Shown piece after piece: positions 2,692 through 24,287 of a stretch of DNA of 64,000 nucleotides (its first letter is position 1; the number at the start of each line of letters is the position of its first letter). The stretch is from Escherichia coli 042 (GTDB lineage Bacteria > Pseudomonadota > Gammaproteobacteria > Enterobacterales > Enterobacteriaceae), in NCBI RefSeq assembly GCF_000027125.1, contig NC_017626.1. One strand, written 5' to 3'. Both the position numbers and the translations under genes were made by a program. The notes below the pieces were generated by a model. The model did not search any database. It saw only the letters and a list, made by a program, of their open reading frames with translations, and was not told the DNA's origin.

Positions 2692-2701
2692 GGAGTAACA
2701 C

Positions 2702-5557: not shown

Positions 5558-5562
5558 GTATA

Positions 5563-5582: not shown

Positions 5583-5714
5583 GTTTTTATTTTCAACGTG
5601 TTTGAAGTTTTGGACGGTGCCAGAATAGAATCAAAAATACTTAAGTAGCGCGCAGGGAGAAGAGGGATGGACCCCGAACAGGGGGAGTGCTATTTATCTG
5701 GAAGGATTCTGTTG

Positions 5715-5888
5715 ATGAAAATCGAAGAATTACGTGAAATTTTTAGTGAAGATGGCCTCTATGCTGTGCGCGTTGAGAATGGGGGTATTACCTACACAGC
5801 GTTAATTCCTGATGATCATGTAGTGTTATCTGTTGAGGCATTCATTGAATACTTGGAAAGACTCGGTTTCAAGGTAGTTCGGGAATAA
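5715..5888 (+). CDS. Hypothetical small protein
   Basis: ATG at 5715 within ORF 5667..5888 (MKIEELREIF...); AT-rich upstream region. Confidence 0.35.
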   Translation: MKIEELREIFSEDGLYAVRVENGGITYTALIPDDHVVLSVEAFIEYLERLGFKVVRE

Positions 5889-5935
5889 GTTATAATACGT
5901 GAGCCAGCCTGAACAACTGGCAACCTGCAGCGCCA

Positions 5936-6220
5936 TTGGAGATGACAATGGCGCATAATTTCAAATTTCGCAATTCTGATTCTGCCTTTGCCAGCAGGCA
6001 CGGGTGGCGTTCTCACGCATTCAAATATGACTGGTATCAGCACGATCCCTGTACTGAAGAACAGGCCGAATGGCTGATTCATAACTACCGCAGACGTGGA
6101 TATGAGTTTAGGAAAGCCCTCACCCTCGATTATCGTCACTGGATAATCTACGTCAGACTCCCTTATTCCGAACGCCCACCGCGTCCGTCCCGCACATTCC
6201 AGCAACGCATCTGGAGGTAA
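5936..6220 (+). CDS. Hypothetical phage protein (rem-like position)
   Basis: 94-aa ORF directly upstream of the DUF968 gene, same position as rem in Qin. Confidence 0.4.
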   Translation: MEMTMAHNFKFRNSDSAFASRHGWRSHAFKYDWYQHDPCTEEQAEWLIHNYRRRGYEFRKALTLDYRHWIIYVRLPYSERPPRPSRTFQQRIWR

Positions 6221-6221
6221 C

Positions 6222-7268
6222 GTGCGGGTATTACTTCGACCTGTTCTGGTACCGGAACTCGGGCTGGTGATCGTTAAGCCGGGCCGTGAATCCATGCCGG
6301 TATTCCACAATACCCGGGTACTGGTGGAGCCGGAACCGAAAAGCATGCGTAATCTGCCGTCCGGGGTCGTTCCTGCCGTTCGCCAGCCGCTGGCGGAGGA
6401 TAAATCATTACTGCCATTTTTCAGCGACGAACGAGTGATTCGTGCTGCTGGTGGCGCTGGCGCATTGTCTGATTGGTTACTGCGCCATGTTAAATCCTGC
6501 CAGTGGCCACACGGCGATTATCACCACAGTGAAACCGTCATTCACCGTTATGGTACCGGCGCAATGGTGTTGTGCTGGCACTGCGACAACCAGCTGCGCG
6601 ACCAGACCTCCGAATCACTCGGGCAACTTGCTCACCAAAACCTGTCTGCATGGATGATTGACGTCATACGCCATGCAATGAATGGCTCGCAGGAACGGGA
6701 ATTATCGCTGGCTGAATTATCCTGGTGGGCGGTCCGCAATCAGGTGGCGGACGCGCTACCGGAAGCGGTATTACGTCGTTCGCTGGGGTTGCGTGCGGAA
6801 AAAATCCGCTCAATGTACCGTGAAAGCGACATCGTACCGGGAGAGCAGACCGCCACCAGCATACTGAAGCAGCGCACAAAAAATCTTGCGCCGCTGCCTC
6901 ACGCCCACCAGCAAAACCCGCCACAGGAAGAGACGGTGGTCAGCATTGCCGTTGATCCTGAGTCTCCGGAATCTTTCATGAAACGACCTAAACGTCGCCG
7001 CTGGGTTAACGAGAAATACACACGCTGGGTGAAGACACAGCCGTGTGCGTGTTGTGGTAAGCCAGCCGACGATCCCCATCACCTGATTGGTCATGGTCAG
7101 GGCGGAATGGGGACAAAATCTCACGATATTTTCACGCTACCGCTGTGTCGGGAGCATCACAACGAGCTTCATGCGGATCCGCTGGCGTTCGAAGAAAAGC
7201 ATGGTTCTCAGGTTGATTTAATTTTTCGTTTTCTTGATCACGCCTTTGCAACTGGCGTGCTTGGGTAA
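6222..7268 (+). CDS. DUF968-family phage protein (YdfU-like)
   Basis: 348 aa; C-terminal Cys/His cluster CACCGK...HHLIGHGQGG...CREHHNELH recalled from YdfU-like prophage proteins; sits upstream of rusA/Q. Confidence 0.6.
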   Translation: MRVLLRPVLVPELGLVIVKPGRESMPVFHNTRVLVEPEPKSMRNLPSGVVPAVRQPLAEDKSLLPFFSDERVIRAAGGAGALSDWLLRHVKSCQWPHGDYHHSETVIHRYGTGAMVLCWHCDNQLRDQTSESLGQLAHQNLSAWMIDVIRHAMNGSQERELSLAELSWWAVRNQVADALPEAVLRRSLGLRAEKIRSMYRESDIVPGEQTATSILKQRTKNLAPLPHAHQQNPPQEETVVSIAVDPESPESFMKRPKRRRWVNEKYTRWVKTQPCACCGKPADDPHHLIGHGQGGMGTKSHDIFTLPLCREHHNELHADPLAFEEKHGSQVDLIFRFLDHAFATGVLG

Positions 7269-7280
7269 AAGAGGTGACTG

Positions 7281-7655
7281 ATGCTCATAGATTTGGTTTT
7301 ACCTTACCCGCCGACGGTGAACACTTACTGGCGACGCCGTGGCAGCACATATTTTATCTCGGAGGAGGGAAAGCGTTATCGCCGGGCTGTGGCGCTTATT
7401 GTTCGCCAGCAGCGGCTGAAATTAAGCCTGTCCGGAAGGCTGGCGATAAAGGTGATTGCAGAGCCACCGGATAAGCGTCGTCGCGACCTGGACAATATCC
7501 TGAAAGCACCGCTGGATGCGCTGACGCATGCGGGAGTGTTAATGGACGATGAGCAGTTTGATGAAATCAATATCGTTCGTGGTCAGCCAGTATCTGGTGG
7601 ACGTCTGGGGGTGAAGATTTACCCCATAATGCTTGAAGGGCAGGTCAAAAAATGA
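7281..7655 (+). CDS. rusA: Holliday junction resolvase RusA
   Basis: 124 aa; RRRDLDNILKAPLDAL matches the conserved RusA DxDN catalytic region. Confidence 0.85.
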   Translation: MLIDLVLPYPPTVNTYWRRRGSTYFISEEGKRYRRAVALIVRQQRLKLSLSGRLAIKVIAEPPDKRRRDLDNILKAPLDALTHAGVLMDDEQFDEINIVRGQPVSGGRLGVKIYPIMLEGQVKK

Positions 7656-8473
7656 AACTGGAAGATTTACCGAAATACTACTCCCCAAAATCCCCCGGCC
7701 TGACTGATGCATCGGCCTCAACGTCGAAAGATGCGCTGAGTATCACTGATGTGATGGCCGCGCAGGGCATGACACAGAATCGGGCTGAGATGGGGTTTTC
7801 TGCGTTCCTTGGGAAAATGGGCATTAGTATGAATGACAGAGAGCGGGCAACAGAATTGCTGACAGAATATGCACTCAGGCGGTGTGATCGCGTGGCGGCG
7901 TTAAGAAAACTCCCGGCAGAAATAAAACCGGCAGTGATGCGTATTATGGCTTCGTATGCGTTTGAAGATTATGCCCGTAGCGCGGCGAGCAAAAAACAGT
8001 GCTCCTGCTGTCACGGAAAAAAATTTATTGAAAGCGAGGTTTTTACAAACAAGATCCAGTATCCGGATGGTAAGCCGCCGGTATGGGCAAAGTGTACGAA
8101 AGGTGTGTATCCGTCTTACTGGGAAGAATGGAAAAAAGTCAGGGAGGTGGTAAAAGTTGCCTGTCCGGAGTGTGGCGGAAAGGGTGAGGTTTCCACCGCC
8201 TGTAAGGATTGCCGTGGGCGTGGTGTCGCCATTCATCGTGAAGAGTCGGTAAAACGTGGTATGCCTGTTATCAGAGACTGCCAGCGTTGTGGTGGTCGTG
8301 GCTGTGAAAGACTACCATCAACGGAGGCATTTAATGCCATATGCAAAGTGACGAGTGCTATCACGCTTGATACGTGGAAAAAATCAGTGAAACGCTTTTA
8401 CGATACGTTGGTGGTTCGGTTTGACATTGAAGAGGCATGGGCGGAGCGGCAGTTAAAGAGGGTAACGCGATAG
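7652..8473 (+). CDS. Late-gene antiterminator Q-like protein (QuuQ-type) with zinc fingers
   Basis: 273 aa with repeated CxxCxGxG motifs; follows rusA and precedes a terminator and the late region. Confidence 0.6.
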   Translation: MKLEDLPKYYSPKSPGLTDASASTSKDALSITDVMAAQGMTQNRAEMGFSAFLGKMGISMNDRERATELLTEYALRRCDRVAALRKLPAEIKPAVMRIMASYAFEDYARSAASKKQCSCCHGKKFIESEVFTNKIQYPDGKPPVWAKCTKGVYPSYWEEWKKVREVVKVACPECGGKGEVSTACKDCRGRGVAIHREESVKRGMPVIRDCQRCGGRGCERLPSTEAFNAICKVTSAITLDTWKKSVKRFYDTLVVRFDIEEAWAERQLKRVTR

Positions 8474-8555
8474 TGTTGTTGATTTTTCCCGAATCTGTGG
8501 TAAATTTGCTCTAACGATGGGCGTTTTATGCCTGACGTTAGAAGATTTTTTACAC

Positions 8556-8577
8556 CCCGCCGCCTGGCGGGTTTTTT
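8556..8577 (+). terminator. Rho-independent terminator, probably tR' of the late promoter region
   Basis: cccgcc gcct ggcggg hairpin followed by TTTTTT just downstream of Q. Confidence 0.5.
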
Positions 8578-8699
8578 ATGACTGAAATCGCGTCAGTACA
8601 GTAAACGCGCTGGTGGCGGTGAATACCTGTCTTTCAGCTTGCTGGCTTTTTCGACAAGAGTTATTGGTGTGTCACGTTAACCGGGAAAGGGAAAAAGAC

Positions 8700-8897
8700 A
8701 TGCTAAAACAGCAGGATATGACAGAAACCGCCAGAGTAGTGTTTAATGAATTAAGCGTTACCGAACCGGCGACAGTCGGGGAGATAGCGCAGAATACTTA
8801 CCTTTCACGCGAACGCTGCCAGTTAATACTGACCCAGCTGGTTATGGCGGGTCTGGCAGACTATCAGTTCGGTTGTTACAGACGCCTTCCGCAGTGA
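8700..8897 (+). CDS. Hypothetical small protein, possibly winged-helix
   Basis: ATG at 8700 within ORF 8613..8897. Confidence 0.35.
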   Translation: MLKQQDMTETARVVFNELSVTEPATVGEIAQNTYLSRERCQLILTQLVMAGLADYQFGCYRRLPQ

Positions 8898-9047
8898 AGG
8901 CTTTTTTATTTGTGGTAAATGGGCGGCTGGTGGGTGTTAGGGGCACCCACCAGCCATCTGCTCATGCGTTGGGTTCACAAGCAAACCTCAGGCCCACTGC
9001 TTTGCGCAAAAGCAGAATGAGCCTATCAGAGACAGGCTTAATGATCC

Positions 9048-10097
9048 ATGCTTAATACTGTAAAAATATCCAGTTGTGAGTTAATCAACGCCGACTGCCT
9101 GGAATTTATCCGGTCGTTACCCGAAAATTCTGTTGACCTGATAGTCACGGACCCGCCGTACTTTAAAGTGAAGCCTGAAGGCTGGGATAACCAGTGGAAG
9201 GGCGACGATGATTACCTGAAGTGGCTGGACCAGTGTCTGGCGCAGTTCTGGCGGGTGCTGAAACCTGCCGGAAGTCTTTACCTGTTCTGTGGTCATCGCC
9301 TGGCATCTGATATCGAAATCATGATGCGTGAACGCTTCAGTGTGCTGAACCATATTATCTGGGCGAAGCCGTCCGGACGCTGGAACGGATGCAACAAGGA
9401 AAGCCTGCGGGCGTATTTCCCCGCCACAGAGCGCATTCTGTTCGCGGAACATTATCAGGGGCCGTATCGTCCGAAAGATGCCGGGTATGCGGCGAAGGGC
9501 AGTGCACTGAAACAGCATGTGATGGCCCCGCTGATTTCTTACTTTCGTGATGCGCGCGCGGCCCTGGGGATAACGGCAAAACAGATTGCAGATGCCACAG
9601 GAAAGAAAAACATGGTGTCGCACTGGTTCAGTGCCAGTCAGTGGCAGCTACCGAACGAAAGCGATTATCTGAAATTACAGTCGCTGTTTGCCCGGGTGGC
9701 AGAAGAGAAACATCAGCGCGGTGAACTGGAAAAGCCCCACCACCAGCTGGTGGATACGTATACGTCACTGAACCGGCAGTATGTGGAGCTGCAGAGTGAA
9801 TATAAGCATCTGCGGCGGTATTTTGGTGTGACGGCGCAGGTGCCGTACACGGATGTGTGGACACATAAACCGGTGCAGTTCTATCCCGGGAAACATCCGT
9901 GCGAAAAACCGGCAGAAATGCTGCAGCAGATAATCAGCGCAAGCAGTCGTCCGGGTGACCTGGTTGCAGATTTTTTTATGGGCTCAGGTTCAACGGTAAA
10001 AGCGGCACTGGCGCTCGGGCGTCGTGCGATTGGCGTTGAACTGGAGACCGGACGTTTTGAGCAGACAGTCAGGGAAGTTCAGGATTTAATCGTTTGA
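9048..10097 (+). CDS. DNA N6-adenine/N4-cytosine methyltransferase (beta-class), no partner nuclease seen
   Basis: IVTDPPYF (motif IV) near the N-terminus and FMGSGST (motif I) near the C-terminus. Confidence 0.8.
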   Translation: MLNTVKISSCELINADCLEFIRSLPENSVDLIVTDPPYFKVKPEGWDNQWKGDDDYLKWLDQCLAQFWRVLKPAGSLYLFCGHRLASDIEIMMRERFSVLNHIIWAKPSGRWNGCNKESLRAYFPATERILFAEHYQGPYRPKDAGYAAKGSALKQHVMAPLISYFRDARAALGITAKQIADATGKKNMVSHWFSASQWQLPNESDYLKLQSLFARVAEEKHQRGELEKPHHQLVDTYTSLNRQYVELQSEYKHLRRYFGVTAQVPYTDVWTHKPVQFYPGKHPCEKPAEMLQQIISASSRPGDLVADFFMGSGSTVKAALALGRRAIGVELETGRFEQTVREVQDLIV

Positions 10098-10146
10098 AAC
10101 GGATGAGATTGCAGAATTAATTACGCACCATTATTATTCTGCTCCC

Positions 10147-10222
10147 GGCCCTTTAGCTCAGTGGTGAGAGCGAGCGACTCATAATCGCCAGGTCGCTGGT
10201 TCAAATCCAGCAAGGGCCACCA
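10147..10222 (+). tRNA. ileZ: tRNA with CAT anticodon, Ile2 (lysidine)-type or Met
   Basis: 76-nt cloverleaf: acceptor ggccctt/aagggcc, T-arm gctgg-ttcaaat-ccagc, anticodon loop ctCATaa, 3' CCA; close to recalled E. coli tRNA-Ile2. Confidence 0.85.
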
Positions 10223-10229
10223 TCACATA

Positions 10230-10306
10230 CCGCCATTAGCTCATCAGGAAAGAGCGCCAGCCTTCGAAGCTGGTTGCGCGGAGTTCGGGTCCCCGAAGGC
10301 GGTCCA
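10230..10306 (+). tRNA. tRNA-Arg (anticodon TCG as read)
   Basis: 77-nt cloverleaf: anticodon stem ccagc/gctgg with loop ctTCGaa, 3' CCA; one mismatch each in acceptor and T stems. Confidence 0.6.
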
Positions 10307-10319
10307 TTATCTGTATCCT

Positions 10320-10396
10320 GCGTTGTTAGCTCAGCCGGACAGAGCAATTGCCTTCTAAGCAATCGGTCACTGGTTCGAATCCAGTACAACGCGCCA
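10320..10396 (+). tRNA. tRNA-Arg (anticodon TCT)
   Basis: 77-nt cloverleaf: acceptor gcgttgt/acaacgc, T-arm actgg-ttcgaat-ccagt, anticodon loop ctTCTaa, 3' CCA. Confidence 0.85.
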
Positions 10397-10440
10397 CACT
10401 TATTTTCCCTGGCTCGCTTTTGCGGGCTTTTTTTTAAATG

Positions 10441-10656
10441 TCTCACAATTCAGGCGGTTGACTGTTGTCTGGTTTGCGGGGAGTTTGTTAAAAGAAACTG
10501 GCATGGTGAATCCCCCTGTGCGGAGGGGCAATCAGCGAGTAGGTATATGGGATAATCGCGGATTCAGGTGCTGGTACTGAATTCACCGGGAGGCACCCGG
10601 CACCATGCAATGGCACATAGCGCCACTCTCCAGCCCCTCTCCGGAGGGGCTTTTCT
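10441..10656 (+). repeat. Structured repeat unit 1 (sRNA-like: promoter-like box, hairpins, terminator)
   Basis: Shares with unit 2 the blocks tcacaattcag, ttgac, ttgttaaaa, gcatggtgaatccccctg.gcggagggg, gtataat/ggataat, caccgggaggcacccggcaccatg and terminator gcccctctccggaggggc+T-run. Confidence 0.55.
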
Positions 10657-10908
10657 GTGCCGGATACATCACAGTTTCTGGAACCTTAGGTACTACAGTA
10701 TCAGTCAGGGTGCTATATTTTCAGATGTGATGAAAGCCTGTCAGCAGGCAGGGCGTATCGGAAATGACCCAGTAGAGAAAACGTTGACTCAGATACCGGT
10801 GCTGAGTTACCGGGAAACCGGCATCACATGACCGCTATCCTTCCAGGCCCATCCGCTCCGGTGGGCCTTTTTACTGCAGAAAACAGGTTCCCCGTTAAAT
10901 GCTATGTT

Positions 10909-11141
10909 GCTCACAATTCAGTAAGTTGACAGTTGCCTGTCAGACTGGGCATTTGTTAAAAAAATTTCGCATGGTGAATCCCCCTGAGCGGAGGGGCGAC
11001 TGGTGACGGTATAATCTCTGATTATCAAAACGAGAATGACGCGGGTTTAGTGGCACCGGACTGAACTCACCGGGAGGCACCCGGCACCATGTGCATGATG
11101 ATACAGATACGCGGCTTTAGCCCCTCTCCGGAGGGGCTTTC
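10909..11141 (+). repeat. Structured repeat unit 2 (sRNA-like)
   Basis: Second diverged copy of the same ~220-bp unit, with a perfect TATAAT at 11010-11015. Confidence 0.55.
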
Positions 11142-11371
11142 TTATGGACAAAAAAAGCCCGCGCTGGGAGACGCGGGCGGCAAGGAATAAACAATAAAAC
11201 GTGAAGTAATATTTCAGCTGGCGAATAATACCCCATAGTAATCACTCTGCGCAACTGCGCGGTCTTTTTCGAATTGCGGGCTGTAGTCTCCCTTCTGCCA
11301 TTGTCCTGTAACTTCCGGACTTCAGCCTGCTCCTTATCTGACTCACAACATTATCCCGCCCGGGAGGATTC

Positions 11372-13225
11372 ATGGCATTTAAACACTATGACGTGGTCAG
11401 GGCGGCATCGCCGTCAGACCTTGCGAAACGACTGACACAAAAACTGAAGGAGGGCTGGCAGCCGTTTGGTAGTCCGGTGGCCATAACCCCTTATACCCTG
11501 ATGCAGGCGATTGCAGCAGAAGGTGATGTGGTCGTCAGTGGTGCAACTGAGCCGGAGTGGTACTACGTCATCGTACTGGCCGGGCAATCCAATGCCATGG
11601 CTTACGGTGAAGGGCTTCCGCTTCCGGATTCATACGATGCGCCCCATCCGCGCATTAAGCAACTGGCCCGTCGTAACACAGTGACTCCCGGTGGTGAAGT
11701 ATGCGTATTTAACGACATCATTCCTGCTGACCATTGTCTGCATGATGTTCAGGATATGAGTACGATTAACCATCCCCGGGCTGACCTGAGCAAAGGGCAG
11801 TACGGCTGTGTCGGACAGGGCTTACATATTGCCAAAAAACTGCTTCCGTATATCCCTAATAATGCGGGGATCCTGCTGGTACCATGCTGTCGTGGTGGTT
11901 CGGCATTCACCCAGGGCACGGAGGGGACATTCAGCGAGTCCACGGGAGCCAGTCAGGATTCGGCTCGCTGGGGAGTGGGTAAGCCGTTATATCAGGATCT
12001 GCTTTTCCGCACGAAGGCAGCATTGCAGAAAAACCCGAAAAACGTTTTGCTGGCGATATGCTGGATGCAGGGGGAATTCGATATGACGAATGCCAGTTAC
12101 GCCCAGCAGCCAGCAGCATTTCTTGCAATGGTACAGCAGTTCCGTGCTGACCTTGCCGGGCTGGCAGCGCAGTGTCACGGTGGAAGTCCGGCATCAGTCC
12201 CCTGGATTTGTGGCGACACGACATACGCGTGGAAACAAGAACACGGTACGCAATATGAAGTGGTATATGGTGCATATAAAGGTAAAGAATCCCAGCAGAT
12301 TTATTTTGTTCCCTTTATGACCGATGGTAGCGGAGTTAATACACCGACAAACAACCCGTCAGAAGATCCTGATATTGCCGGGTCTGGTTATTACGGTTCG
12401 GCATCCCGAACGAACAAAAACTGGGTATCATCAAATCGCCCGACGCATTTCAGCTCATGGGCGCGTCGTGGCATTATTCCCGATCGTATGGCAACTGCTA
12501 TTCTGAACGTAGCCGGTCGCACCTTAGCCTTCATTAGTGGTAAGGCACCGGAAATCAAACCCTCGCCCGGCGGCGACACGCCATTGGGGCCGTCTGAAGA
12601 TGCATCCATACGCACAATCTCCCTGTTGCCGACAGCCGGAGACGCTGCTGCGCAGGGCTGGAGCATTAAGAATGGCGGAATTCAGTTGTCAGATGGTGTA
12701 TTTAAGATCACCAAGCAGAGCAATAAAGCCTGGTCCCTGACGCGCCCGGTGGATGACGCAGTCTCCCTGCTGACACGGGGTGGCAGACTGAGCTGTAAGT
12801 TTCGACTGTCAGGCGCACTGACCAACAATCAGTTCGGTCTGGGAATTTATCTGTATACCGATGTAGCGTTACCTGACGTCGTGGCGATGACCGGGACTGG
12901 TAACCCGTTCCTGATGTCGTTCTTCACCCAGACCACAGACGGCAAACTGAATCTGATGCATCACAAGAAAGCAGGAAACACAAAGTTGGGCGAGTTCGGG
13001 AATTACAGTAACGACTGGCAGACGCTGGAGCTGGTGTTCACCGCCGGCAGTGCCACGGTTACTCCGAAACTGAATGGAGTGGCTGGCCCGGCATTCCAGG
13101 TCATAAAAGACAGTCTGACACTGGGGCTGAATGCGCTGACGCTGACGGATATTACCAAAAATGCAGCGTATGGCGTTGAGATAGAAAGTCTGGTGCTGGA
13201 GATAAATGCACCGGCATCATCATAA
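11372..13225 (+). CDS. Phage NanS-p-like sialate O-acetylesterase (DUF1737 + SGNH hydrolase)
   Basis: 617 aa; N-terminal MAFKHYDVV... and GQSNAMAYGEG esterase motif; occupies the post-tRNA position before the lysis genes. Confidence 0.75.
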   Translation: MAFKHYDVVRAASPSDLAKRLTQKLKEGWQPFGSPVAITPYTLMQAIAAEGDVVVSGATEPEWYYVIVLAGQSNAMAYGEGLPLPDSYDAPHPRIKQLARRNTVTPGGEVCVFNDIIPADHCLHDVQDMSTINHPRADLSKGQYGCVGQGLHIAKKLLPYIPNNAGILLVPCCRGGSAFTQGTEGTFSESTGASQDSARWGVGKPLYQDLLFRTKAALQKNPKNVLLAICWMQGEFDMTNASYAQQPAAFLAMVQQFRADLAGLAAQCHGGSPASVPWICGDTTYAWKQEHGTQYEVVYGAYKGKESQQIYFVPFMTDGSGVNTPTNNPSEDPDIAGSGYYGSASRTNKNWVSSNRPTHFSSWARRGIIPDRMATAILNVAGRTLAFISGKAPEIKPSPGGDTPLGPSEDASIRTISLLPTAGDAAAQGWSIKNGGIQLSDGVFKITKQSNKAWSLTRPVDDAVSLLTRGGRLSCKFRLSGALTNNQFGLGIYLYTDVALPDVVAMTGTGNPFLMSFFTQTTDGKLNLMHHKKAGNTKLGEFGNYSNDWQTLELVFTAGSATVTPKLNGVAGPAFQVIKDSLTLGLNALTLTDITKNAAYGVEIESLVLEINAPASS

Positions 13226-13375
13226 AAAGTGAGCCAGCCAAATGGAAGGTATCGTTAAACTCACCGGTAGTGTCAGTGGGTCGTCTGAGATGCCTGCATG
13301 AGTTATCAGAGCCATCAGTACTTAACTGGTGGCTTTTTTTATTGTTGTCAGCTTCCGGATAACGGGAGACGGGGT

Positions 13376-13591
13376 ATGTACCAGATGGAAAAAATCACAA
13401 CAGGTGTGTCATACACCACGTCAGCGGTGGGAACGGGCTACTGGTTCCTGCAGTTGCTGGACAGGGTTTCCCCGTCTCAGTGGGCGGCAATAGGCGTGCT
13501 GGGGAGTCTGCTGTTTGGGCTGCTGACATATCTGACTAACCTGTATTTCAAAATCAGAGAGGACCGTCGTAAGGCTGCACGGGGAGAGTAA
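13376..13591 (+). CDS. Holin, S21-type pinholin with dual start
   Basis: 71 aa [10 protein letters not shown]...[24 protein letters not shown]...[13 protein letters not shown] matches recalled phage 21 S; two in-frame Met (M1, M4) as in antiholin/holin pairs. Confidence 0.85.
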
Positions 13592-13595
13592 TTCA

Positions 13596-13911
13596 ATGAC
13601 TCAAAACTATGAACTGATTGTGAAAGGGATCCGCAATTTTGAGAATAAAGTTACGGTAACTTTAGCGTTACGGGACAAAAAAACGCTTTGACGGTGAAAT
13701 TTTTGACCTGGACATCTCGCTGGACCGTGTTGAAGGTGCCGCGCTGGAGTTTTATGAGGCAGCAGCCAGAAGGAGCATCAGACAGGTCTTCCTGGATGTT
13801 GCTGCCGGGTTATGTGAAGGGGACGAGCTGTTGCCAGAAACGCGCCCCTGTTCAGAGGCGCGGTATACCATAAAAATTAACAGTTCTGATAACTCGATTA
13901 CGGGTTGTTAG
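13596..13911 (+). pseudogene. ydfR-like small gene split by a frameshift at an A7 run
   Basis: ATG 13596 reads 31 codons to TGA at 13689-13691; the +1 frame continues open from 13684 to TAG 13909-13911 with no start codon; junction is the A7 tract 13677-13683. Confidence 0.5.
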
Positions 13912-13966
13912 CTTTTTGCAGTTGGCTTTCCAGTATCTTTCATTGGTAGCATCCTGATAAATATCC

Positions 13967-14500
13967 ATGAGCGCAAAAATCAAATACGGCCTGTCAGCTG
14001 CTGTTCTGGCGCTGATTGCTGCAGGCGCGTCTGCTCCTCAGATACTTGACCAGTTTCTGGACGAAAAAGAGGGTAACCACACAACGGCATACCGCGATGG
14101 TTCCGGCATCTGGACCATCTGTCGGGGGGCCACGATGGTGGATGGAAAACCCGTTTTTCCCGGTATGAAACTGTCGAAGGAAAAATGCGACCAGGTCAAC
14201 GCCATTGAGCGTGATAAGGCGCTGGCATGGGTGGAGAAAAACATCAAAGTGCCATTGAGCGAACCCCAGAAAGCGGGGATCGCGTCATTCTGTCCGTACA
14301 ACATTGGTCCCGGTAAGTGTTTCCCGTCGACGTTTTATAAACGAATTAATGCAGGTGATCGCAGGGGAGCGTGTGAGGCGATTCGCTGGTGGATTAAGGA
14401 CGGTGGCAGAGACTGCCGTATTCGTTCAAACAACTGCTACGGTCAGGTATCCCGTCGTGACCAGGAGAGCGCGCTGGCGTGCTGGGGTATCGACAGATAA
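13967..14500 (+). CDS. SAR endolysin (phage lysozyme, R21-like)
   Basis: 177 aa; N-terminal signal-anchor LSAAVLALIAAGASAP followed by lysozyme fold, T4-lysozyme-like (GH24) family as recalled for R21. Confidence 0.85.
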   Translation: MSAKIKYGLSAAVLALIAAGASAPQILDQFLDEKEGNHTTAYRDGSGIWTICRGATMVDGKPVFPGMKLSKEKCDQVNAIERDKALAWVEKNIKVPLSEPQKAGIASFCPYNIGPGKCFPSTFYKRINAGDRRGACEAIRWWIKDGGRDCRIRSNNCYGQVSRRDQESALACWGIDR

Positions 14501-14659
14501 GCAGAATATTTTGCTGAAAAATAAGGCATGGCCACGCGGGCGGATAACATGAAATCCTGCGAAGTGGCGAAACGTAAGTGAATAAAAGTAAAAACCCCGT
14601 TTGTTGGCACCAAGCGGGGTTTTGTGTTTCCTGACTCCGGAAAAGTCAAAGGAGAAAGT

Positions 14660-14797
14660 GTGTTTGATTTTAGCAAACTGATTCGGGAGATTCGAGTGAT
14701 GGCTGAAAAATTATCCACCTGGAAGTTCATTCTTATCTGGCTGGTGTTTGTGATTATGGCCTCCGGTTATTTCATCGGTCAGATACGCTGGTGGTGA
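14660..14797 (+). CDS. Possible small membrane protein between R and Rz
   Basis: GTG 14660 (or ATG 14699) after GGAG; hydrophobic [20 protein letters not shown]; stop overlaps Rz start. Confidence 0.25.
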
Positions 14798-14798
14798 A

Positions 14799-15263
14799 AT
14801 GAACCGCGTACTGTGCGTGGTCATCATTGCCCTGCTGGTGGCCTGTGGTGCGCTTAGTCTGGGGCTGAATCATTACCGTGATAACGCCATTACCTACAAA
14901 GCCCAGCGCGACAAAAATGTCAGAGAACTGAAGCTGGCGAACGCGGCAATTACTGACATGCAGATGCGTCAGCGTGATGTTGCTGCGCTCGATGCAAAAT
15001 ACACGAAGGAGTTAGCTGATGCGAAAGCTGAAAATGATGCTCTGCGTGATGATGTTGCCGCTGGTCGTCGTCGGTTGCACATCAAAGCAGTCTGTCAGTC
15101 AGTGCGTGAAGCCACCACCGCCTCCGGCGTGGATAATGCAGCCTCCCCCCGACTGGCAGACACCGCTGAACGGGATTATTTCACCCTCAGAGCGCGACTG
15201 ATAATAATGCAAAAACAACTTGAAGGGGCACAGCTATACATTCGAGAGCAATGCCTCAGATAA
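14799..15263 (+). CDS. Rz: Rz i-spanin
   Basis: 154 aa, near-identical over most of its length to recalled lambda Rz ([17 protein letters not shown]...). Confidence 0.9.
15019..15201 (+). CDS. Rz1: Rz1 o-spanin lipoprotein, embedded in Rz in +1 frame
   Basis: 60 aa with lipobox VVGC and proline-rich [20 protein letters not shown] as in lambda Rz1. Confidence 0.85.
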
Positions 15264-16038: not shown

Positions 16039-16272
16039 TCAATCTGGTCTGACCTGTTTTCTGAGCAATTCAGTAATGTCACTCTTTTCTTTGTTTGCTT
16101 CAGGCGAAACTCTTTTTTCTGAGCACAGTCTCCGGCGGCAGGCTTCAATGACCCAGGCTGAGAAATTCCCGGACCCTTTTTGAACAAGAGCGATGTTAAT
16201 TTGTTCAATCATTTGGTTAGGAAAGCGGATGTTGCGGGTTGTTGTTCTGCGGGTTCTGTTCTTCGTTGACAT
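16039..16272 (-). CDS. Ribbon-helix-helix (Arc/MetJ-like) DNA-binding protein
   Basis: 77 aa; basic N-terminus then NIRFPNQMIEQINIALVQKG...FSAWVIEACRRRL resembles the RHH beta-strand plus two helices. Confidence 0.5.
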   Translation of the reverse strand: MSTKNRTRRTTTRNIRFPNQMIEQINIALVQKGSGNFSAWVIEACRRRLCSEKRVSPEANKEKSDITELLRKQVRPD

Positions 16273-16471
16273 GAGGTTGCCCTGTATTCAGTGTCGCTGA
16301 TTTGTATTGTCTGAAGTTGTTTTTACGTTAGGTTGATGCAGATCAATTAATACGATACCTGCGTCATAATTGATTATTTGACGTGGTTTGATGGCCTCCA
16401 CGCACGTTGTGATATGTAGATGATAATCATTATCGCTTTACGGGTCCTTTCCGGTGATCCGACAGGTTACG

Positions 16472-16483
16472 GGGCGGCGACCT
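16472..16483 (+). other. cos: cos site (cosN 12-nt cohesive end) with cosB downstream
   Basis: cgggtcctttccggtgatccgacaggttacg / gggcggcgacct cgcgg...tatttatgaaaatttt matches the lambda genome ends as I recall them. Confidence 0.8.
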
Positions 16484-16659
16484 CGCGGTTTTTCACTATT
16501 TATGAAAATTTTTCAGGGAAAATCGTGTCGGTACTTCTCGAATATAACTTTTTGTTTTTTTTAATATTACATCCGTAAAGGTCCGACATGAAAGTGTCCG
16601 AAAATGACTTTTTCTGGCGTTTTCATGTCGGGCCTTGTATTTGATAATGGGTTGTTTTC

Positions 16660-17208
16660 ATGAAGGTTAATAAAAAGAGGCTTGCCGAAATTTTCAACGT
16701 GGACCCGCGGACGATTGAACGCTGGCAGTCTCAGGGACTCCCTTGCGCCTCCAAAGGTAGTAAGGGCATTGAATCTGTATTTGATACTGCCATGGCAATT
16801 CAGTGGTATGCGCAGAGGGAAACTGATATCGAAAACGAAAAGCTCCGCAAAGAACTGGACGATTTGCGTGCGGCAGCGGAGTCAGATTTACAACCCGGCA
16901 CCATTGACTATGAACGCTACCGGCTCACAAAAGCGCAGGCAGATGCGCAGGAACTGAAAAATGCCCGTGAAGACGGAGTAGTGCTGGAAACTGAACTGTT
17001 TACCTTCATTCTGCAACGTGTGGCACAGGAGATTTCGGGGATACTTGTGCGTGTGCCGTTGACATTACAGCGTAAATATTCGGACATTTCACCATCACAC
17101 CTTGATGTGGTGAAAACTGAAATCGCGAAAGCCTCCAATGTTGCAGCTAAGGCCGGTGAAAACGTGGGCGGGTGGATCGATGATTTCAGACGCGCAGAAG
17201 GCAGCTAA
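16660..17208 (+). CDS. nu1: Terminase small subunit Nu1
   Basis: 182 aa [12 protein letters not shown]...IENEKL, lambda Nu1-like N-terminal HTH. Confidence 0.9.
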
Positions 17209-19108
17209 TGCAGCCGGTGCGATAGCTACAGGGCTTTTATCTCTCATTATTCCTGTTCCACTGACGACAGTTCAGTGGGCCAATAAACATTATTACCTTC
17301 CTAAAGAGTCGTCTTATACCCCCGGGCGGTGGGAAACACTGCCGTTTCAGGTTGGCATCATGAACTGTATGGGCAACGATCTGATTCGCACGGTTAACCT
17401 GATTAAATCTGCCCGTGTTGGTTATACAAAGATGTTGCTGGGAGTGGAGGCTTATTTTATTGAGCATAAATCACGCAACAGCCTTCTTTTTCAGCCCACG
17501 GACTCAGCTGCTGAAGATTTTATGAAATCTCATGTTGAGCCAACGATAAGGGATGTTCCTGCATTGCTGGAGCTGGCTCCATGGTTCGGAAGAAAACACC
17601 GCGATAATACGCTCACCCTGAAGCGTTTTTCCTCCGGTGTGGGGTTCTGGTGTCTGGGTGGTGCGGCAGCAAAAAACTACCGTGAAAAATCCGTGGATGT
17701 GGTCTGTTATGACGAGCTTTCCTCGTTCGAACCGGATGTTGAAAAAGAGGGTTCGCCAACCCTGCTGGGGGATAAACGTATTGAGGGCTCTGTATGGCCA
17801 AAATCCATTCGCGGCTCGACGCCTAAAATCAAAGGCTCCTGCCAGATCGAAAAAGCCGCTAACGAGTCGGCACACTTCATGCGTTTTTATGTGCCCTGTC
17901 CGCACTGTGGGGAGGAGCAGTATCTGAAATTTGGCGATGATGCCTCGCCTTTCGGTCTTAAGTGGGAGAAGAATAAACCAGAAAGTGTTTTCTACCTTTG
18001 TGAGCATCATGGCTGTGTGATCCATCAGTCTGAGCTTGACCAGAGTAACGGGCGGTGGATCTGTGAAAACACGGGCATGTGGACCCGTGACGGCCTGATG
18101 TTTTTCAGCGCCCGGGGTGATGAAATTCCGCCGCCGCGTTCCATCACTTTCCATATCTGGACGGCGTACAGTCCGTTCACCACCTGGGTACAGATTGTCT
18201 ATGACTGGCTGGATGCACTGAAAGATCCCAACGGCCTGAAAACCTTTGTGAACACCACGCTGGGCGAGACCTGGGAAGAGGCCGTGGGCGAAAAACTCGA
18301 TCACCAGGTACTGATGGATAAGGTTGTGCGTTACACGGCGGCGGTGCCTGCCCGGGTGGTTTATCTGACGGCGGGCATTGACTCGCAGCGAAACCGTTTC
18401 GAGATGTATGTCTGGGGATGGGCTCCGGGAGAGGAAGCCTTTCTGGTGGATAAAATCATCATTATGGGGCGTCCCGATGAGGAAGAGACGCTGTTACGTT
18501 TGGATGCGGCGATCAACAAAAAATACCGCCATGCAGACGGAACCGAAATGACTATTTCCCGTGTCTGCTGGGACATCGGGGGGATCGATGGCGAAATCGT
18601 TTATCAGAGGTCAAAAAAACACGGTGTTTTCCGGGTGCTGCCGGTAAAAGGCGCATCTGTCTATGGCAAGCCGGTGATCACCATGCCAAAAACCCGCAAT
18701 CAGCGGGGCGTGTATCTGTGTGAAGTGGGGACGGACACCGCAAAAGAAATTCTCTATGCCCGTATGAAAGCCGATCCCACGCCTGTGGATGAAGCCACGT
18801 CGTATGCCATCCGTTTTCCTGATGATCCGGAGATTTTTTCGCAGACAGAGGCGCAGCAACTGGTCGCGGAAGAGCTTGTGGAGAAGTGGGAAAAAGGAAA
18901 GATGCGTCTGCTGTGGGATAACAAAAAGCGGCGTAACGAAGCGCTGGACTGCCTGGTGTATGCCTACGCGGCATTACGTGTGTCCGTGCAACGCTGGCAG
19001 CTTGATCTGGCTGTACTGGCAAAATCCCGGGAAGAAGAGACGACCCGGCCAACCCTTAAAGAACTGGCAGCGAAGCTGTCCGGAGGAGTGAATGGTTACA
19101 GTCGCTGA
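17180..19108 (+). CDS. A: Terminase large subunit A
   Basis: Long stretches identical to recalled lambda gpA ([11 protein letters not shown]..., [25 protein letters not shown]); ATG 17180 overlaps the Nu1 end. Confidence 0.9.
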
Positions 19109-19298
19109 ACTGCAGGCGCTGCGTCAGGCGCGCCTTGATTTATTAACCGGTAAACGGGTGGTGTCTGTCCAGAAAGATGGTCGCAGAATTGAATATACGG
19201 CGGCTTCTCTGGATGAGCTTAACCGGGCGATCAATGATGCGGAGTCGGTACTGGGGACAACCCGGCGTCGCCGTCGTCCGCTGGGAGTGAGGTTATGA
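19092..19298 (+). CDS. W: Head-tail joining protein W
   Basis: 68 aa, lambda W size and position. Confidence 0.85.
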   Translation: MVTVAELQALRQARLDLLTGKRVVSVQKDGRRIEYTAASLDELNRAINDAESVLGTTRRRRRPLGVRL

Positions 19299-20887
19299 AA
19301 CGAACGCCTGTCCTGATTGATGTGAACGGCGTTCCGCTTCGTGATAGTCTCAGCTACAACGGGGGCGGTGCAGGATTTGGCGGGCAAATGGCTGAGTGGT
19401 TGCCACCGGCGCAGAGTGCCGATGCGGCCCTGCTGCCCGCGTTGCGTCTGGGGAATGCCCGGGCAGATGATCTGGTGCGCAATAACGGAATAGCGGCTAA
19501 TGCGGTGGCTCTGCATAAGGATCACATTGTCGGGCATATGTTTCTGATCAGCTACCGTCCGAACTGGCGCTGGCTGGGGATGCGGGAGACCGCAGCAAAA
19601 AGCTTTGTCGATGAGGTGGAGGCGGCCTGGTCGGAATACGCCGAAGGGATGTTTGGCGAGATCGACGTGGAAGGAAAACGCACCTTCACGGAATTTATCC
19701 GTGAAGGTGTGGGCGTTCATGCGTTTAACGGCGAAATCTTTGTGCAGCCGGTCTGGGATACGGAAACCACGCAGTTATTCCGTACGCGTTTTAAAGCCGT
19801 GAGTCCGAAACGGGTGGACACGCCTGGACACGGTATGGGGAACCGTTTTCTGCGGGCCGGTGTGGAGGTCGATCGATATGGCCGTGCCGTCGCGTACCAT
19901 ATCTGTGAGGATGATTTTCCGTTCTCTGGTAGTGGACGATGGGAACGGATCCCGCGTGAACTTCCCACCGGGCGTCCGGCCATGCTGCATATTTTCGAGC
20001 CGGTGGAGGACGGGCAGACCCGTGGGGCTAATCAGTTTTACAGCGTCATGGAACGGCTGAAGATGCTCGATTCCCTGCAGGCAACACAGCTTCAGTCGGC
20101 CATAGTGAAGGCGATGTATGCAGCGACGATTGAAAGTGAACTTGATACCGAAAAGGCCTTTGAATATATCGCCGGCGCGCCACAGGAGCAGAAGGATAAT
20201 CCGCTTATTAATATTCTGGAGAAGTTCTCCAGCTGGTATGACACGAATAACGTGACACTGGGCGGTGTCAAAATTCCGCACCTTTTCCCTGGTGATGATC
20301 TGAAACTACAGACTGCGCAGGATTCAGACAATGGATTTTCTGCGCTTGAACAGGCGCTGCTGCGGTATATCGCCGCCGGTCTTGGCGTTTCCTACGAACA
20401 GTTGTCCCGTGATTACTCGAAGGTCAGTTACTCAAGTGCCCGCGCCTCCGCCAATGAGTCGTGGCGCTATTTTATGGGGCGGCGAAAATTTATTGCGGCC
20501 CGGCTGGCCACGCAGATGTTTTCCTGCTGGCTGGAAGAGGCACTTCTTCGGGGGATTATTCGTCCGCCACGGGCACGTTTTGATTTTTATCAGGCGCGAT
20601 CAGCCTGGTCACGGGCAGAGTGGATTGGTGCCGGAAGAATGGCCATTGACGGGCTCAAGGAAGTCCAGGAATCAGTGATGCGCATTGAGGCCGGACTGAG
20701 CACGTATGAGAAAGAGCTGGCGCTGATGGGCGAGGATTATCAGGACATTTTCCGCCAGCAGGTCAGGGAATCTGCTGAGCGGCAAAAAGCCGGACTCTCA
20801 CGTCCGGTGTGGATAGCGCAGGCGTATCAGCAGCAGATAGCGGAGAGTCGCAGGCCGGAAGAGGAGACAACACCACGTGAGACGTAA
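19295..20887 (+). CDS. B: Portal protein B
   Basis: 530 aa, lambda gpB size and position. Confidence 0.9.
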   Translation: MKRTPVLIDVNGVPLRDSLSYNGGGAGFGGQMAEWLPPAQSADAALLPALRLGNARADDLVRNNGIAANAVALHKDHIVGHMFLISYRPNWRWLGMRETAAKSFVDEVEAAWSEYAEGMFGEIDVEGKRTFTEFIREGVGVHAFNGEIFVQPVWDTETTQLFRTRFKAVSPKRVDTPGHGMGNRFLRAGVEVDRYGRAVAYHICEDDFPFSGSGRWERIPRELPTGRPAMLHIFEPVEDGQTRGANQFYSVMERLKMLDSLQATQLQSAIVKAMYAATIESELDTEKAFEYIAGAPQEQKDNPLINILEKFSSWYDTNNVTLGGVKIPHLFPGDDLKLQTAQDSDNGFSALEQALLRYIAAGLGVSYEQLSRDYSKVSYSSARASANESWRYFMGRRKFIAARLATQMFSCWLEEALLRGIIRPPRARFDFYQARSAWSRAEWIGAGRMAIDGLKEVQESVMRIEAGLSTYEKELALMGEDYQDIFRQQVRESAERQKAGLSRPVWIAQAYQQQIAESRRPEEETTPRET

Positions 20888-22382
20888 TCTTTCACACATT
20901 ATTGCCGCAGCATTCAATGAACCGCTGCTTCTGGAGCCCGCCTATGCGCGGGTTTTCTTTTGCGCGCTCGGGCGCGAGATGGGGGCAGCAAGTCTTTCGG
21001 TACCACAACAGCAGGTACAGCTTGATGCTCCCGGAATGCTGGCTGAAACGGACGAGTATATGGCCGGAGGTAAACGACCGGCCCGTGTTTACCGGGTGGT
21101 GAACGGTATTGCTGTACTGCCGGTGACCGGCACGCTGGTGCACCGGCTGGGTGGTATGCGGCCATTTTCCGGAATGACAGGCTATGACGGCATTGTCGCC
21201 TGTCTTCAGCAGGCAATGGCGGATAGCCAGGTGCGGGGCGTACTGCTGGACATTGACAGTCCGGGCGGGCAGGCCGCCGGCGCGTTTGACTGCGCTGACA
21301 TGATTTACCGCCTCCGTCAGCAGAAGCCGGTCTGGGCACTGTGCAATGACACGGCCTGTTCTGCAGCCATGCTGCTGGCGTCTGCCTGCTCCCGACGGCT
21401 GGTTACCCAGACATCCCGTATCGGCTCCATTGGCGTGATGATGAGCCATGTCAGCTATGCCGGTCATCTGGCGCAGGCCGGTGTGGATATCACGCTGATT
21501 TACTCAGGGGCGCACAAGGTGGATGGCAATCAGTTTGAAGCGTTGCCGGCAGAGGTTCGCCAGGACATGCAGCAGCGGATTGATGCGGCGCGCCGGATGT
21601 TTGCCGAAAAAGTGGCGATGTTTACCGGTCTGTCTGTTGATGCAGTCACGGGAACAGAGGCCGCCGTTTTTGAAGGTCAGTCCGGCATTGAGGCCGGGCT
21701 GGCGGATGAATTAATCAATGCGTCGGATGCCATCAGTGTGATGGCCACGGCGCTGAACAGTAATGTCAGAGGAGGCACTATGCCGCAATTAACTGCAACG
21801 GAAGCCGCCGTGCAGGAGAACCAGCGAGTGATGGGGATCCTGACATGCCAGGAAGCGAAAGGACGTGAACAGCTTGCCACGATGCTGGCAGGGCAACAGG
21901 GCATGAGCGTTGAACAGGCCCGGGCGATTCTGGCCGCGGCGGCACCGCAGCAGCCGGTGGCATCCGCGCAGAGTGAAGCCGATCGCATTATGGCGTGTGA
22001 AGAAGCGAACGGTCGTGAACAACTGGCGGCAACGCTGGCGGCGATGCCGGAGATGACGGTGGAAAAAGCCCGCCCGATCCTGGCGGCTGCACCACTGGCG
22101 GATGCCGGGCCCTCACTTCGTGATCAGATCATGGCCCTGGATGAGGCAAAAGGGGCAGAAGCGCAGGCTGAAAAACTGGCGGCCTGCCCGGGAATGACCG
22201 TGGAGAACGCCCGGGCTGTGCTGGCTGCGGGATCAGGTAAGGCCGAACCGGTCTCTGCATCCACAACCGCCCTGTTTGAACATTTCATGGCGAATCATTC
22301 ACCGGCAGCGGTGCGGGGTGGCGTGTCACAGACGTCAGCAGACGGTGATGCGGACGTGAAAATGCTCATGGCCATGCCATGA
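20877..22382 (+). CDS. C: Head protease/scaffold C (S49 peptidase; Nu3-like C-terminus with triplicated module)
   Basis: N-terminus FNEPLLLEPAYARVFFCAL as in lambda C; three tandem ~42-aa repeats near the C-terminus. Confidence 0.85.
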   Translation: MRRNLSHIIAAAFNEPLLLEPAYARVFFCALGREMGAASLSVPQQQVQLDAPGMLAETDEYMAGGKRPARVYRVVNGIAVLPVTGTLVHRLGGMRPFSGMTGYDGIVACLQQAMADSQVRGVLLDIDSPGGQAAGAFDCADMIYRLRQQKPVWALCNDTACSAAMLLASACSRRLVTQTSRIGSIGVMMSHVSYAGHLAQAGVDITLIYSGAHKVDGNQFEALPAEVRQDMQQRIDAARRMFAEKVAMFTGLSVDAVTGTEAAVFEGQSGIEAGLADELINASDAISVMATALNSNVRGGTMPQLTATEAAVQENQRVMGILTCQEAKGREQLATMLAGQQGMSVEQARAILAAAAPQQPVASAQSEADRIMACEEANGREQLAATLAAMPEMTVEKARPILAAAPLADAGPSLRDQIMALDEAKGAEAQAEKLAACPGMTVENARAVLAAGSGKAEPVSASTTALFEHFMANHSPAAVRGGVSQTSADGDADVKMLMAMP

Positions 22383-22418
22383 AGTCAGTGCTGACCATCA
22401 ATATGAGGTTTTAACAAA

Positions 22419-22766
22419 ATGGTGACGAAAACCATCACTGAACAGCGTGCGGAAGTACGTATTTTTGCCGGTAATGATCCGGCTCATACCGCCACAGGCA
22501 GCAGCGGGATTTCTTCTGCAACACCGGCTCTGACGCCCCTGATGCTGGATGAAGCCACCGGGAAACTGGTGGTCTGGGATGGACAGAAAGCCGGTAGTGC
22601 GGTTGGCATACTGGTACTGCCGCTTGAAGGCACAGAGACGGTGCTGACCTATTACAAGTCGGGGACCTTTGCGACGGAGGCAATCCGCTGGCCTGACAGT
22701 GTGGATGAACACAAAAAGGCAAATGCCTTTGCCGGCACAGCCCTGAGTCACGCGGCTCTGCCGTAA
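22419..22766 (+). CDS. D: Head decoration protein D
   Basis: 115 aa; DPAHTAT...TPLMLD...WDG...YKSGTF motifs as in lambda gpD. Confidence 0.9.
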   Translation: MVTKTITEQRAEVRIFAGNDPAHTATGSSGISSATPALTPLMLDEATGKLVVWDGQKAGSAVGILVLPLEGTETVLTYYKSGTFATEAIRWPDSVDEHKKANAFAGTALSHAALP

Positions 22767-22823
22767 CACGTTATCAGGCCACCATGGTGGCCTGACTGAT
22801 TTCTGAATGAAAGGAACTGATTT

Positions 22824-23852
22824 ATGGGATTGTTTACGACCCGCCAGTTACTCGGTTATACCGAACAAAAAGTTAAATTCCGTGCGCTATTTCTGGAGCT
22901 GTTTTTCCGCCGTACGGTGAATTTCCACACCGAAGAGGTGATGCTGGACAAAATTACCGGAAAAACGCCGGTGGCGGCCTATGTCTCCCCGATCGTTGAA
23001 GGAAAAGTGCTGCGCCATCGTGGTGGTGAAACCCGCGTGTTGCGTCCGGGCTACGTCAAGCCGAAACACGAATTTAATTACCAGCAGGCGGTTGAGCGCC
23101 TTCCCGGTGAAGATCCGGCTCAGCTGAACGACCCGGCCTACCGTCGTCTGCGTATCATTACCGATAACCTCAAACAGGAAGAGCACGCTATTGTCCAGGT
23201 GGAAGAAATGCAGGCGGTGAATGCCGTGCTGTATGGCAAATACACCATGGAAGGGGAACAGTTTGACACGGTCGAGGTGGATTTCGGACGCTCTGAAGGA
23301 AATAACATTGAGCAGGCCGACGGTAAAAAATGGTCTGAGCAGGACCGTGATACGTTTGATCCGACGCATGATATTGACCTTTACTGCGATCAGGCCAGCG
23401 GTCTTGTGAATATTGCCATTATGGACGGTACGGTCTGGCGTCTGCTGAATGGCTTTAAGCTGTTCCGCGAAAAACTGGATACCCGTCGCGGCTCAAATTC
23501 ACAACTCGAAACGGCAGTGAAAGACCTGGGGGCGGTGGTGTCTTTCAAAGGGTATTACGGTGATCTGGCCATTGTGGTGGCGAAAACGTCTTATGTGGCA
23601 GACGACGGTACCGAAAAACGTTATCTGCCGGAGGGCACACTGGTCCTGGGGAATACGGCAGCAGAGGGCATTCGTTGCTATGGTGCCATTCAGGATGCGC
23701 AGGCGTTGTCCGAAGGTGTGGTGGCCTCTTCCCGTTATCCGAAACACTGGCTGACTGTGGGCGATCCGGCCCGTGAATTCACCATGACGCAGTCCGCACC
23801 GCTGATGGTGCTGCCGGATCCGGATGAGTTTGTGGTGGTGCAGGTGAAATAA
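22824..23852 (+). CDS. E: Major capsid protein E
   Basis: 342 aa, lambda gpE size and position. Confidence 0.9.
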   Translation: MGLFTTRQLLGYTEQKVKFRALFLELFFRRTVNFHTEEVMLDKITGKTPVAAYVSPIVEGKVLRHRGGETRVLRPGYVKPKHEFNYQQAVERLPGEDPAQLNDPAYRRLRIITDNLKQEEHAIVQVEEMQAVNAVLYGKYTMEGEQFDTVEVDFGRSEGNNIEQADGKKWSEQDRDTFDPTHDIDLYCDQASGLVNIAIMDGTVWRLLNGFKLFREKLDTRRGSNSQLETAVKDLGAVVSFKGYYGDLAIVVAKTSYVADDGTEKRYLPEGTLVLGNTAAEGIRCYGAIQDAQALSEGVVASSRYPKHWLTVGDPAREFTMTQSAPLMVLPDPDEFVVVQVK

Positions 23853-23894
23853 TCCGTGAGCGGGGGCGAAATGCCCCCGTGTCTTTTTTCACAG

Positions 23895-24287
23895 GAGGCT
23901 GAGATGGCAACAAAAGAAGAAAATCTGAATCGTCTTCGTCAACTGGCTGGCCTGCTGGGGCGCGAGGCGGATATGTCGGGGAGTGCTGCGGATATTGCTC
24001 AACGTGTGTCTGAGTGGGAAGAGGAGCTTGCTGTTTCCCCGGAGGGCATTATGCACTCTGATGAGAGCGGGGCTGATCAAAATCACACAGACGATGGTGA
24101 GCAGTTGAACAACACGGATGCTCCGGATGATGTTAAAGCCGTCCGGGTACGGAAGTGCCTGCAAGTAATGGGGTATTGCCCGGAGACAGGTCGTCCCGTT
24201 GAGCTGGCGTTACGGGGTATGCGTGTTCTGGTGCCATCATCACTGGCAACGGCCATGATACAGCACGGAACGGCTGAATATGCGTGA
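23895..24287 (+). CDS. FI: DNA packaging protein FI
   Basis: ATG 23895 within ORF 23856..24287; ~130 aa as lambda FI. Confidence 0.7.
   Translation, partial: EAEMATKEENLNRLRQLAGLLGREADMSGSAADIAQRVSEWEEELAVSPEGIMHSDESGADQNHTDDGEQLNNTDAPDDVKAVRVRKCLQVMGYCPETGRPVELALRGMRVLVPSSLATAMIQHGTAEYA

Follow-up and report, generated by a model that had tools for sequence, protein, structure and literature searches.

The cohesive-end packaging site (cos) of a mosaic lambdoid prophage in Escherichia coli 042 most probably has the packaging specificity of phage 21; from comparison of the sequences we put the probability of this reading at about 93%. The site lies in a stretch of 64,000 nucleotides (the window, to which all positions refer), in which the prophage is inserted at ompW, beside the trp operon. 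The original prediction was that of a lambda-identical cos at 16440-16660. This proved right for cosQ, cosN and the left flank but wrong for cosB, which is a phage 21 allele. The element itself is ordinary and already known, being a well-characterised phage 21-type cos.

In 2015 Feiss et al. (PMC4669245) described that lambda and phage 21 have cosQ and cosN in common and that each excludes the DNA of the other more than 1000-fold via the interaction of TerS with cosB; cosB and terminase differences of the kind found between lambda and 21 lead to mutually exclusive packaging specificity. A complex cosB is defined by three R sequences, of which R2 is inverted, and by an IHF site between R3 and R2. 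The specificity resides in contacts of the recognition helix of TerS with the R sites, the key determinants being bp 56 and 59 of R3 and residues 20 and 24 of TerS, and the spacing from cosN to R3 is critical (Feiss et al., 2015; Murialdo and Feiss, 2022, PMC9026076). Termination of packaging requires cosQ, cosN and I2 and is indifferent to the type of cosB (PMC4669245, PMC9026076). Since lambda and 21 share both cosN and cosQ and differ in cosB and TerS, identity in cosN and cosQ is no indicator of lambda packaging specificity.

Cohesive end, cosQ and nicking site

For the comparison the genome ends of lambda (NC_001416) and of phage 21 (OL657228, complete and annotated) were joined and the junctions aligned to the window. 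The subsites around the nicks are the following.

16442-16448, plus strand: cosQ (GGGTCCT), the subsite for termination of packaging, 30 bases upstream of the nick in the top strand; 7/7 to lambda 48473-48479
16467-16488, no strand: cosN, the 22-bp nicking site, identical to lambda and phage 21
16472-16483, plus strand: cohesive-end sequence GGGCGGCGACCT, 12 nt, 12/12 to lambda and phage 21; the predicted left end of the DNA in the virion
16489-16520, plus strand: spacer between cosN and cosB with the I2 region (I2 is annotated in M81255)

The cohesive end had been placed correctly: GGGCGGCGACCT has a single exact match in the 64,000 nucleotides, at 16472-16483 on the plus strand. The 12-mer by itself is weak evidence for a cos, because with at most one mismatch allowed 29 of 100 shuffles of the window contained at least one match; it is the flanks that decide. 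An origin of the 12-mer by chance, which these shuffles would allow, is refuted by hundreds of flanking bases that are 97-99% identical to the ends of lambda and phage 21, and we give it no weight.

cosQ is also identical to the annotated cosQ of phage 21 (OL657228 42902-42908), and its distance to the nick is equal in the window, lambda and phage 21. cosN shows two-fold symmetry at 10 of its 22 positions; the predicted nicks lie at 16471/16472 in the top strand and at 16483/16484 in the bottom strand. From cosQ to the nick (16440-16471) the window agrees with the lambda right end in 32/32 positions and with phage 21 in 28/32. To the right of the nick the relation is reversed: bases 1-41 match lambda in 39/41 and phage 21 in 41/41 positions, the first base differing from lambda being 16489, and 16484-16512 matches phage 21 in 29/29 and lambda in 27/29. 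Alignment to the lambda genome ends, the check proposed with the original prediction, thus found cosN identical and without the divergence that would have spoken against it, but it also found divergence that begins 18 bases into the left end and is complete at cosB. Over the whole of 16440-16660 there are 159/224 matches to lambda and 215/221 to phage 21.

A 52-aa open reading frame across cosN (16420-16578), which overlaps cosQ, cosN and R3 and is unannotated in RefSeq relatives, was taken as spurious. An Rfam search gave no match at cos.

The subsites of cosB

The subsite annotation of phage 21, which is experimentally based, was carried over to the window with a constant offset of 16471.

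16521-16536, plus strand: R3, AATCGTGTCGGTACTT, to which the binding of TerS is critical, at bp 50-65 counted from the nick; no difference from R3 as annotated in phage 21
16545-16557, minus strand: I1, the IHF site, TAACTTTTTGTTT, read on the minus strand as AAACAAAAAGTTA; identical to the annotated phage 21 I1
16578-16593, minus strand: R2, TTTCATGTCGGACCTT (minus strand), in the opposite orientation to R3 and R1; same sequence as the R2 annotated in phage 21
16621-16637, plus strand: R1, TTTCATGTCGGGCCTTG; identical to the annotated phage 21 R1

Taken from bp 42 up to the terminase gene (16513-16659), cosB is identical to phage 21 in 145/147 positions (98.6%) and to lambda in 87/150 (58%). 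Within bp 1-188 two bases differ from phage 21 (16569 and 16607), both of them between annotated sites. I1 has one mismatch to the IHF consensus WATCAANNNNTTR, and R2 and R1 together form an inverted repeat of 27 nt that is 81% complementary.

The cores of the R boxes begin 53, 112 and 153 bases from the nick as compared with 53, 114 and 155 in lambda, which is within 2 bp; that of R3 begins at bp 53 as in lambda, so that the critical spacing from cosN to R3 is kept. The core itself reads C(G/A)TGTCGG in the window and CGTTTCC in lambda. The cohesive end, cosQ, the layout of R3, I1, R2 and R1, their spacing and the adjoining terS and terL are those of a lambda-like cohesive-end site with a complex cosB. 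Judged from the alignments, the architecture of cosB is kept and its recognition sequence is different from that of lambda.

A cos of this appearance might belong to a phage-inducible chromosomal island (PICI) or to another satellite that hijacks the terminase of a helper, and the cosQ and cosN of PICIs hardly differ from their counterparts in lambda-like phages (PMC9026076). In PICIs, however, cos has no repeated R boxes and rpp comes after it (PMC9026076), whereas in the window three R boxes and I1 are present and cos is followed by genes for full-length TerS and TerL and by a complete morphogenesis operon. Contradicted by the gene content, an origin from a satellite is scarcely conceivable.

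Terminase and packaging specificity

Directly downstream of cosB lie terS and terL, and upstream of cos lies Rz, the third gene that had been described as near-identical to lambda.

16660-17208, plus strand: small terminase subunit (TerS), phage 21 gp1 allele, 182 aa; 181/182 to gp1 (99.5%), 93/182 to lambda Nu1 (51.1%)
17180-19108, plus strand: large terminase subunit (TerL), phage 21 gp2 allele, 642 aa; 641/642 to gp2 (99.8%), 64.3% to lambda A
14799-15263: Rz; 83.8% to lambda Rz, 82.5% to phage 21

None of the three descriptions held. TerS and TerL belong to phage 21 and not to lambda, and the identity of Rz to lambda reaches 94% (nucleotides) only in the 3′ ~390 nt of the gene. With cosB, TerS and TerL being phage 21 alleles, the predicted lambda-type packaging also had to be given up.

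TerS, which is recognized by Pfam as Phage_Nu1 (E = 2.4e-80) and aligns in its N-terminus to the lambda TerS structures 6hn7 and 1j9i, has a single change from gp1, S140 for P140, outside the N-terminal DNA-binding domain. TerL contains the Pfam domains GpA_ATPase and GpA_nuclease. At the published lambda/21 determinants the window is 21-type in 4/4: bp 56 and 59 of R3 are G and G (core CGTGTCGG), T and C in lambda, and residues 20 and 24 of TerS are E and S, Q and E in lambda. R3 thus lacks T56 and C59 and TerS lacks Q20 and E24, all of which lambda specificity calls for; the R boxes and I1 match cosB-21, the DNA-binding domain is that of TerS-21 and TerL is the cognate TerL-21. With 4/4 determinants of the 21 type, a 21-specific terminase, and not that of lambda, should be the one to cut and package this cos.

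For a lambda-identical cos with the packaging specificity of Nu1 and A speak the full match of cosQ and cosN and the 362 bases left of the nick, which are 97% lambda. Against it stand a cosB that is only 58% lambda, the R-box core C(G/A)TGTCGG in place of CGTTTCC, the identities of 51% for TerS and 64% for TerL to the lambda proteins and the four determinants. It is refuted by direct alignment, and we regard it as very improbable.

Phage 21 specificity also agrees with the surroundings. In a window-wide nucleotide BLAST the head block (16472-24025) was 97.4% identical to phage 21 and 66-69% to lambda; the tail genes (77-95%) form the sole block that is comparably close to both. Among 50,697 phage records the best matches right of cosN were the phage 21 records M81255, X02501 and OL657228, and lambda-type records matched the left part only.

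In annotations the locus should be named as a terminase/cos module of the phage 21 type that is attached to a lambda-type right end. The assignment also predicts cross-packaging among helpers, satellites (PICIs) and cosmids: a 21-specific system could package this cos and a lambda-specific one could not.

In Rz the first ~25 residues are unlike lambda Rz and the remainder is near-identical to it. Embedded in the gene in another frame is a 60-aa open reading frame (15019-15201), which has the place and size expected of Rz1 (o-spanin).

Proposed mechanism of packaging

By the lambda/21 paradigm, packaging would proceed as follows. After induction and rolling-circle replication, dimers of TerS (gp1 allele) would bind to R3, R2 and R1, and IHF would bend the DNA at I1. 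TerL (gp2 allele), thereby anchored on cosN, would nick the strands 12 bases apart. The end bearing cosB would then be moved rightwards into the prohead, the terminase and head genes first, until packaging stops at the next cos, for which cosQ, cosN and I2 would be needed and a matching cosB would not. From this analogy we infer that cos is cleaved in E. coli 042. As lambda and 21 have the same cosQ and cosN, and termination does not depend on the type of cosB, full function is to be expected of a lambda-type right end combined with a 21-type cosB.

The junction at cosN

To the left of cosQ the window has a different relative.

16039-16272, minus strand: ynfO/DUF3950 (Pfam DUF3950)
16110-16441, no strand: lambda-type right-end module left of cosQ, overlapping the 5′ part of ynfO/DUF3950

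The sequence from 16110 to 16471 is identical to lambda 48141-48502 in 351/362 positions (97%) and to phage 21 in 208/396. The last base that is lambda-like and not 21-like is 16461 and the first that is 21-like and not lambda-like is 16489; the switch from lambda on the left to 21 on the right therefore lies inside the shared 27 bp (16462-16488) around the nick sites. By these alignments the cos is a natural chimera of a lambda-type right-end module and a 21-type cosB/terminase/head module.

The junction (at least 80% of 16250-16750 covered) is present in 634 of 5,426 complete E. coli genomes, and the 21-type cos module (16441-16760) in 824 E. coli genomes. In the phage collection no record covered at least 80% of 16100-17300, since phage records that are linear begin and end at cos or close to it. 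As a search with the whole junction fails on such records, the record ends were compared directly; this revealed no isolated phage with the exact junction of lambda-left and 21-right, though it is present in those 634 E. coli chromosomes. Three phages were considered as carriers and rejected: ev017 has a 21-type and not a lambda-type right end, and 4A7 and 1W share the window sequence from cosQ rightwards only. The noh genes of E. coli K-12 had been expected to be of the 21 type, which proved wrong; nohD and its cos are lambda-type. A lambda-type cosB with nohD was found in 3,984 of the 5,426 genomes, largely as the DLP12-type remnant.

The nearest known system is the cos of phage 21 (M81255, X02501, OL657228), which has the same order cosQ-cosN-I2-R3-I1-R2-R1 followed by gp1 and gp2, and in which cosQ, cosN, the spacer to bp 41, R3, I1, R2 and R1 are identical. 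It differs in the module left of cosQ, which contains TonB-like and hypothetical genes in phage 21 and the lambda-type ynfO/DUF1398 in the window, and in four bases of the interval from cosQ to cosN (16440, 16454, 16455 and 16461). Phage 21 furthermore integrates at icd rather than ompW, and its early region and lysis genes are also different. With the cos of lambda (NC_001416) the window shares the architecture, the spacing, cosQ, the 22-bp cosN and 97% of the 362 right-end bases; it differs in cosB (58%), where lambda has T56/C59 for G56/G59, and in TerS (51%) and TerL (64%).

The isolated lambdoid phages 4A7 and 1W (Bievrevirus) are ~99% identical to the window from cosQ rightwards (16441-16757 and 16441-16825), including the 21-type cosB and TerS, and have a third, unrelated sequence left of cosQ. 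The left edge of cosQ is therefore a recurrent mosaic boundary, and since these phages have been isolated with another right end, a 21-type cosB is viable with right ends that are not those of phage 21. In all, there are at least three unrelated right-end modules to which the cosB-21 module was found attached.

One may ask whether such joints are made at cosN by the packaging machinery itself, which would make cos a terminase-driven hotspot of module shuffling rather than a place of ordinary homologous recombination. Packaging could be initiated at one cos and terminated at another, in a heterologous tandem prophage or in a mixed concatemer; alternatively, the identical cohesive ends of two different phages could anneal. 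We consider this origin of the joints doubtful. As is expected for this phage group, the junction shows cos in the role of a mosaic boundary that recurs among lambdoid phages.

The prophage and its mobility

As had been predicted, the cohesive-end site is of the lambda family and lies within a mosaic lambdoid prophage, the early region of which is not lambda-like; the window-wide BLAST yielded no alignment to lambda in 1-14861. The gene order is: Q-type antiterminator, DNA methyltransferase, three tRNAs, SASA/NanS-type esterase, class II holin, a ydfR-family gene, lysozyme, Rz/Rz1, DUF1398, ynfO, cos, terS, terL, the complete operon for head and tail, lom and the genes for the tail fibres. Next come a truncated ompW remnant (42138-42263), yciEFG and the trp operon. 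The left part of the prophage, with integrase and repressor, lies outside the window.

From ~9,000 to 42,500 the window is colinear with a prophage of E. coli strain CB7453 (NZ_CM144245.1), with ~20 differences. The latter is ~51 kb long, starts at an integrase next to ompW and contains integrase, excisionase, a repressor/cro pair, replication genes, Q and a lysis cassette; its head and tail genes are all annotated as intact. The ~20 differences fall in the 32.5 kb from 10001 to 42500, as compared with 74 (~1%) in the 7.5 kb of chromosome from 42501 to 50000 (yciE to trpE). A near-identical prophage beside a chromosomal flank that is ~1% divergent suggests that the prophage spread horizontally into different backgrounds recently, which would imply mobility.

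These data bear on the question whether the cos is a fossil, intact in sequence and never used in a defective prophage, like cos/nohD of the cryptic prophage DLP12. Unused cos sites are common, as the lambda-type cos/nohD remnants in 3,984 of 5,426 genomes indicate, the left end of the prophage is outside the window, and the prophage of the relative CB7453 is ~51 kb long with a ydfR-family gene that is frameshifted. A length of ~51 kb is near the upper packaging limit of heads of lambda size. Against a fossil argue the packaging, head and tail genes from 16660 to about 40500, which are all full length and either 97-99.8% identical to functional phage 21 genes or annotated as intact. The integrase, excisionase, repressor/cro, replication genes, Q and lysis cassette of the CB7453 prophage argue in the same direction, as do the ~20 differences from that copy in 33 kb against ~1% in the chromosomal flank, which suggest recent horizontal spread and with it mobility. 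We therefore hold a fossil to be unlikely, though of the alternatives it is the one with the most weight, and prefer a packaging site of phage 21 specificity.

Other features of the window

The ydfR-family gene lies at 13596-13911, between the holin and lysozyme genes, and is annotated as frameshifted in CB7453. As the window differs little or not at all from CB7453 at this place, its copy is probably frameshifted too.

The window from 1 to ~9000 contains a different variant of the early region, for which the best match was strain E300010 (98.9%); as CB7453 is not colinear there, the annotation was compared with E300010. A mosaic joint between the early/nin-like region and the late region thus lies near 9 kb. 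Positions 1-9000 harbor many small genes of unknown function, hokD, DUF968, RusA and the Q-type antiterminator; the sok antitoxin RNA that accompanies hokD was found as an Rfam match at 3332-3507.

Downstream of the antiterminator and the DNA methyltransferase are three tRNA genes (10147-10396). The first has the anticodon CAT and is called Met by ARAGORN and tRNA-Ile in RefSeq; the others are Arg-TCG and Arg-TCT. A tRNA trio after the antiterminator is typical of the late regions of Stx phages; no stx genes follow the cluster at 10147-10396. Two copies of the sRNA STnc100 (Rfam; 10472-10662 with 136 bits and 10940-11149 with 165 bits) lie in the interval from the tRNA cluster to the gene for the SASA-family (NanS-like) esterase (11372-13225).

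At the right end of the prophage a full-length Rfam match to IS009 (40259-40457, 225 bits) lies inside an annotated tail fibre assembly gene (39916-40500). It is followed by a class I SAM-dependent methyltransferase gene on the minus strand (40555-41223), a second gene for tail fibre assembly (41373-41549) and a DUF4376 gene that is interrupted by an internal stop (41646-41915). The latter two are fragments, possibly left behind by an earlier prophage or by an exchange of tail-fibre cassettes. The attachment site is at the 126-bp 3′ remnant of ompW (42138-42263). The chromosomal flank beyond it contains the trp operon leader (minus strand, 50572-50665) and the sRNA STnc180 (63111-63313), both ordinary features of E. 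coli.
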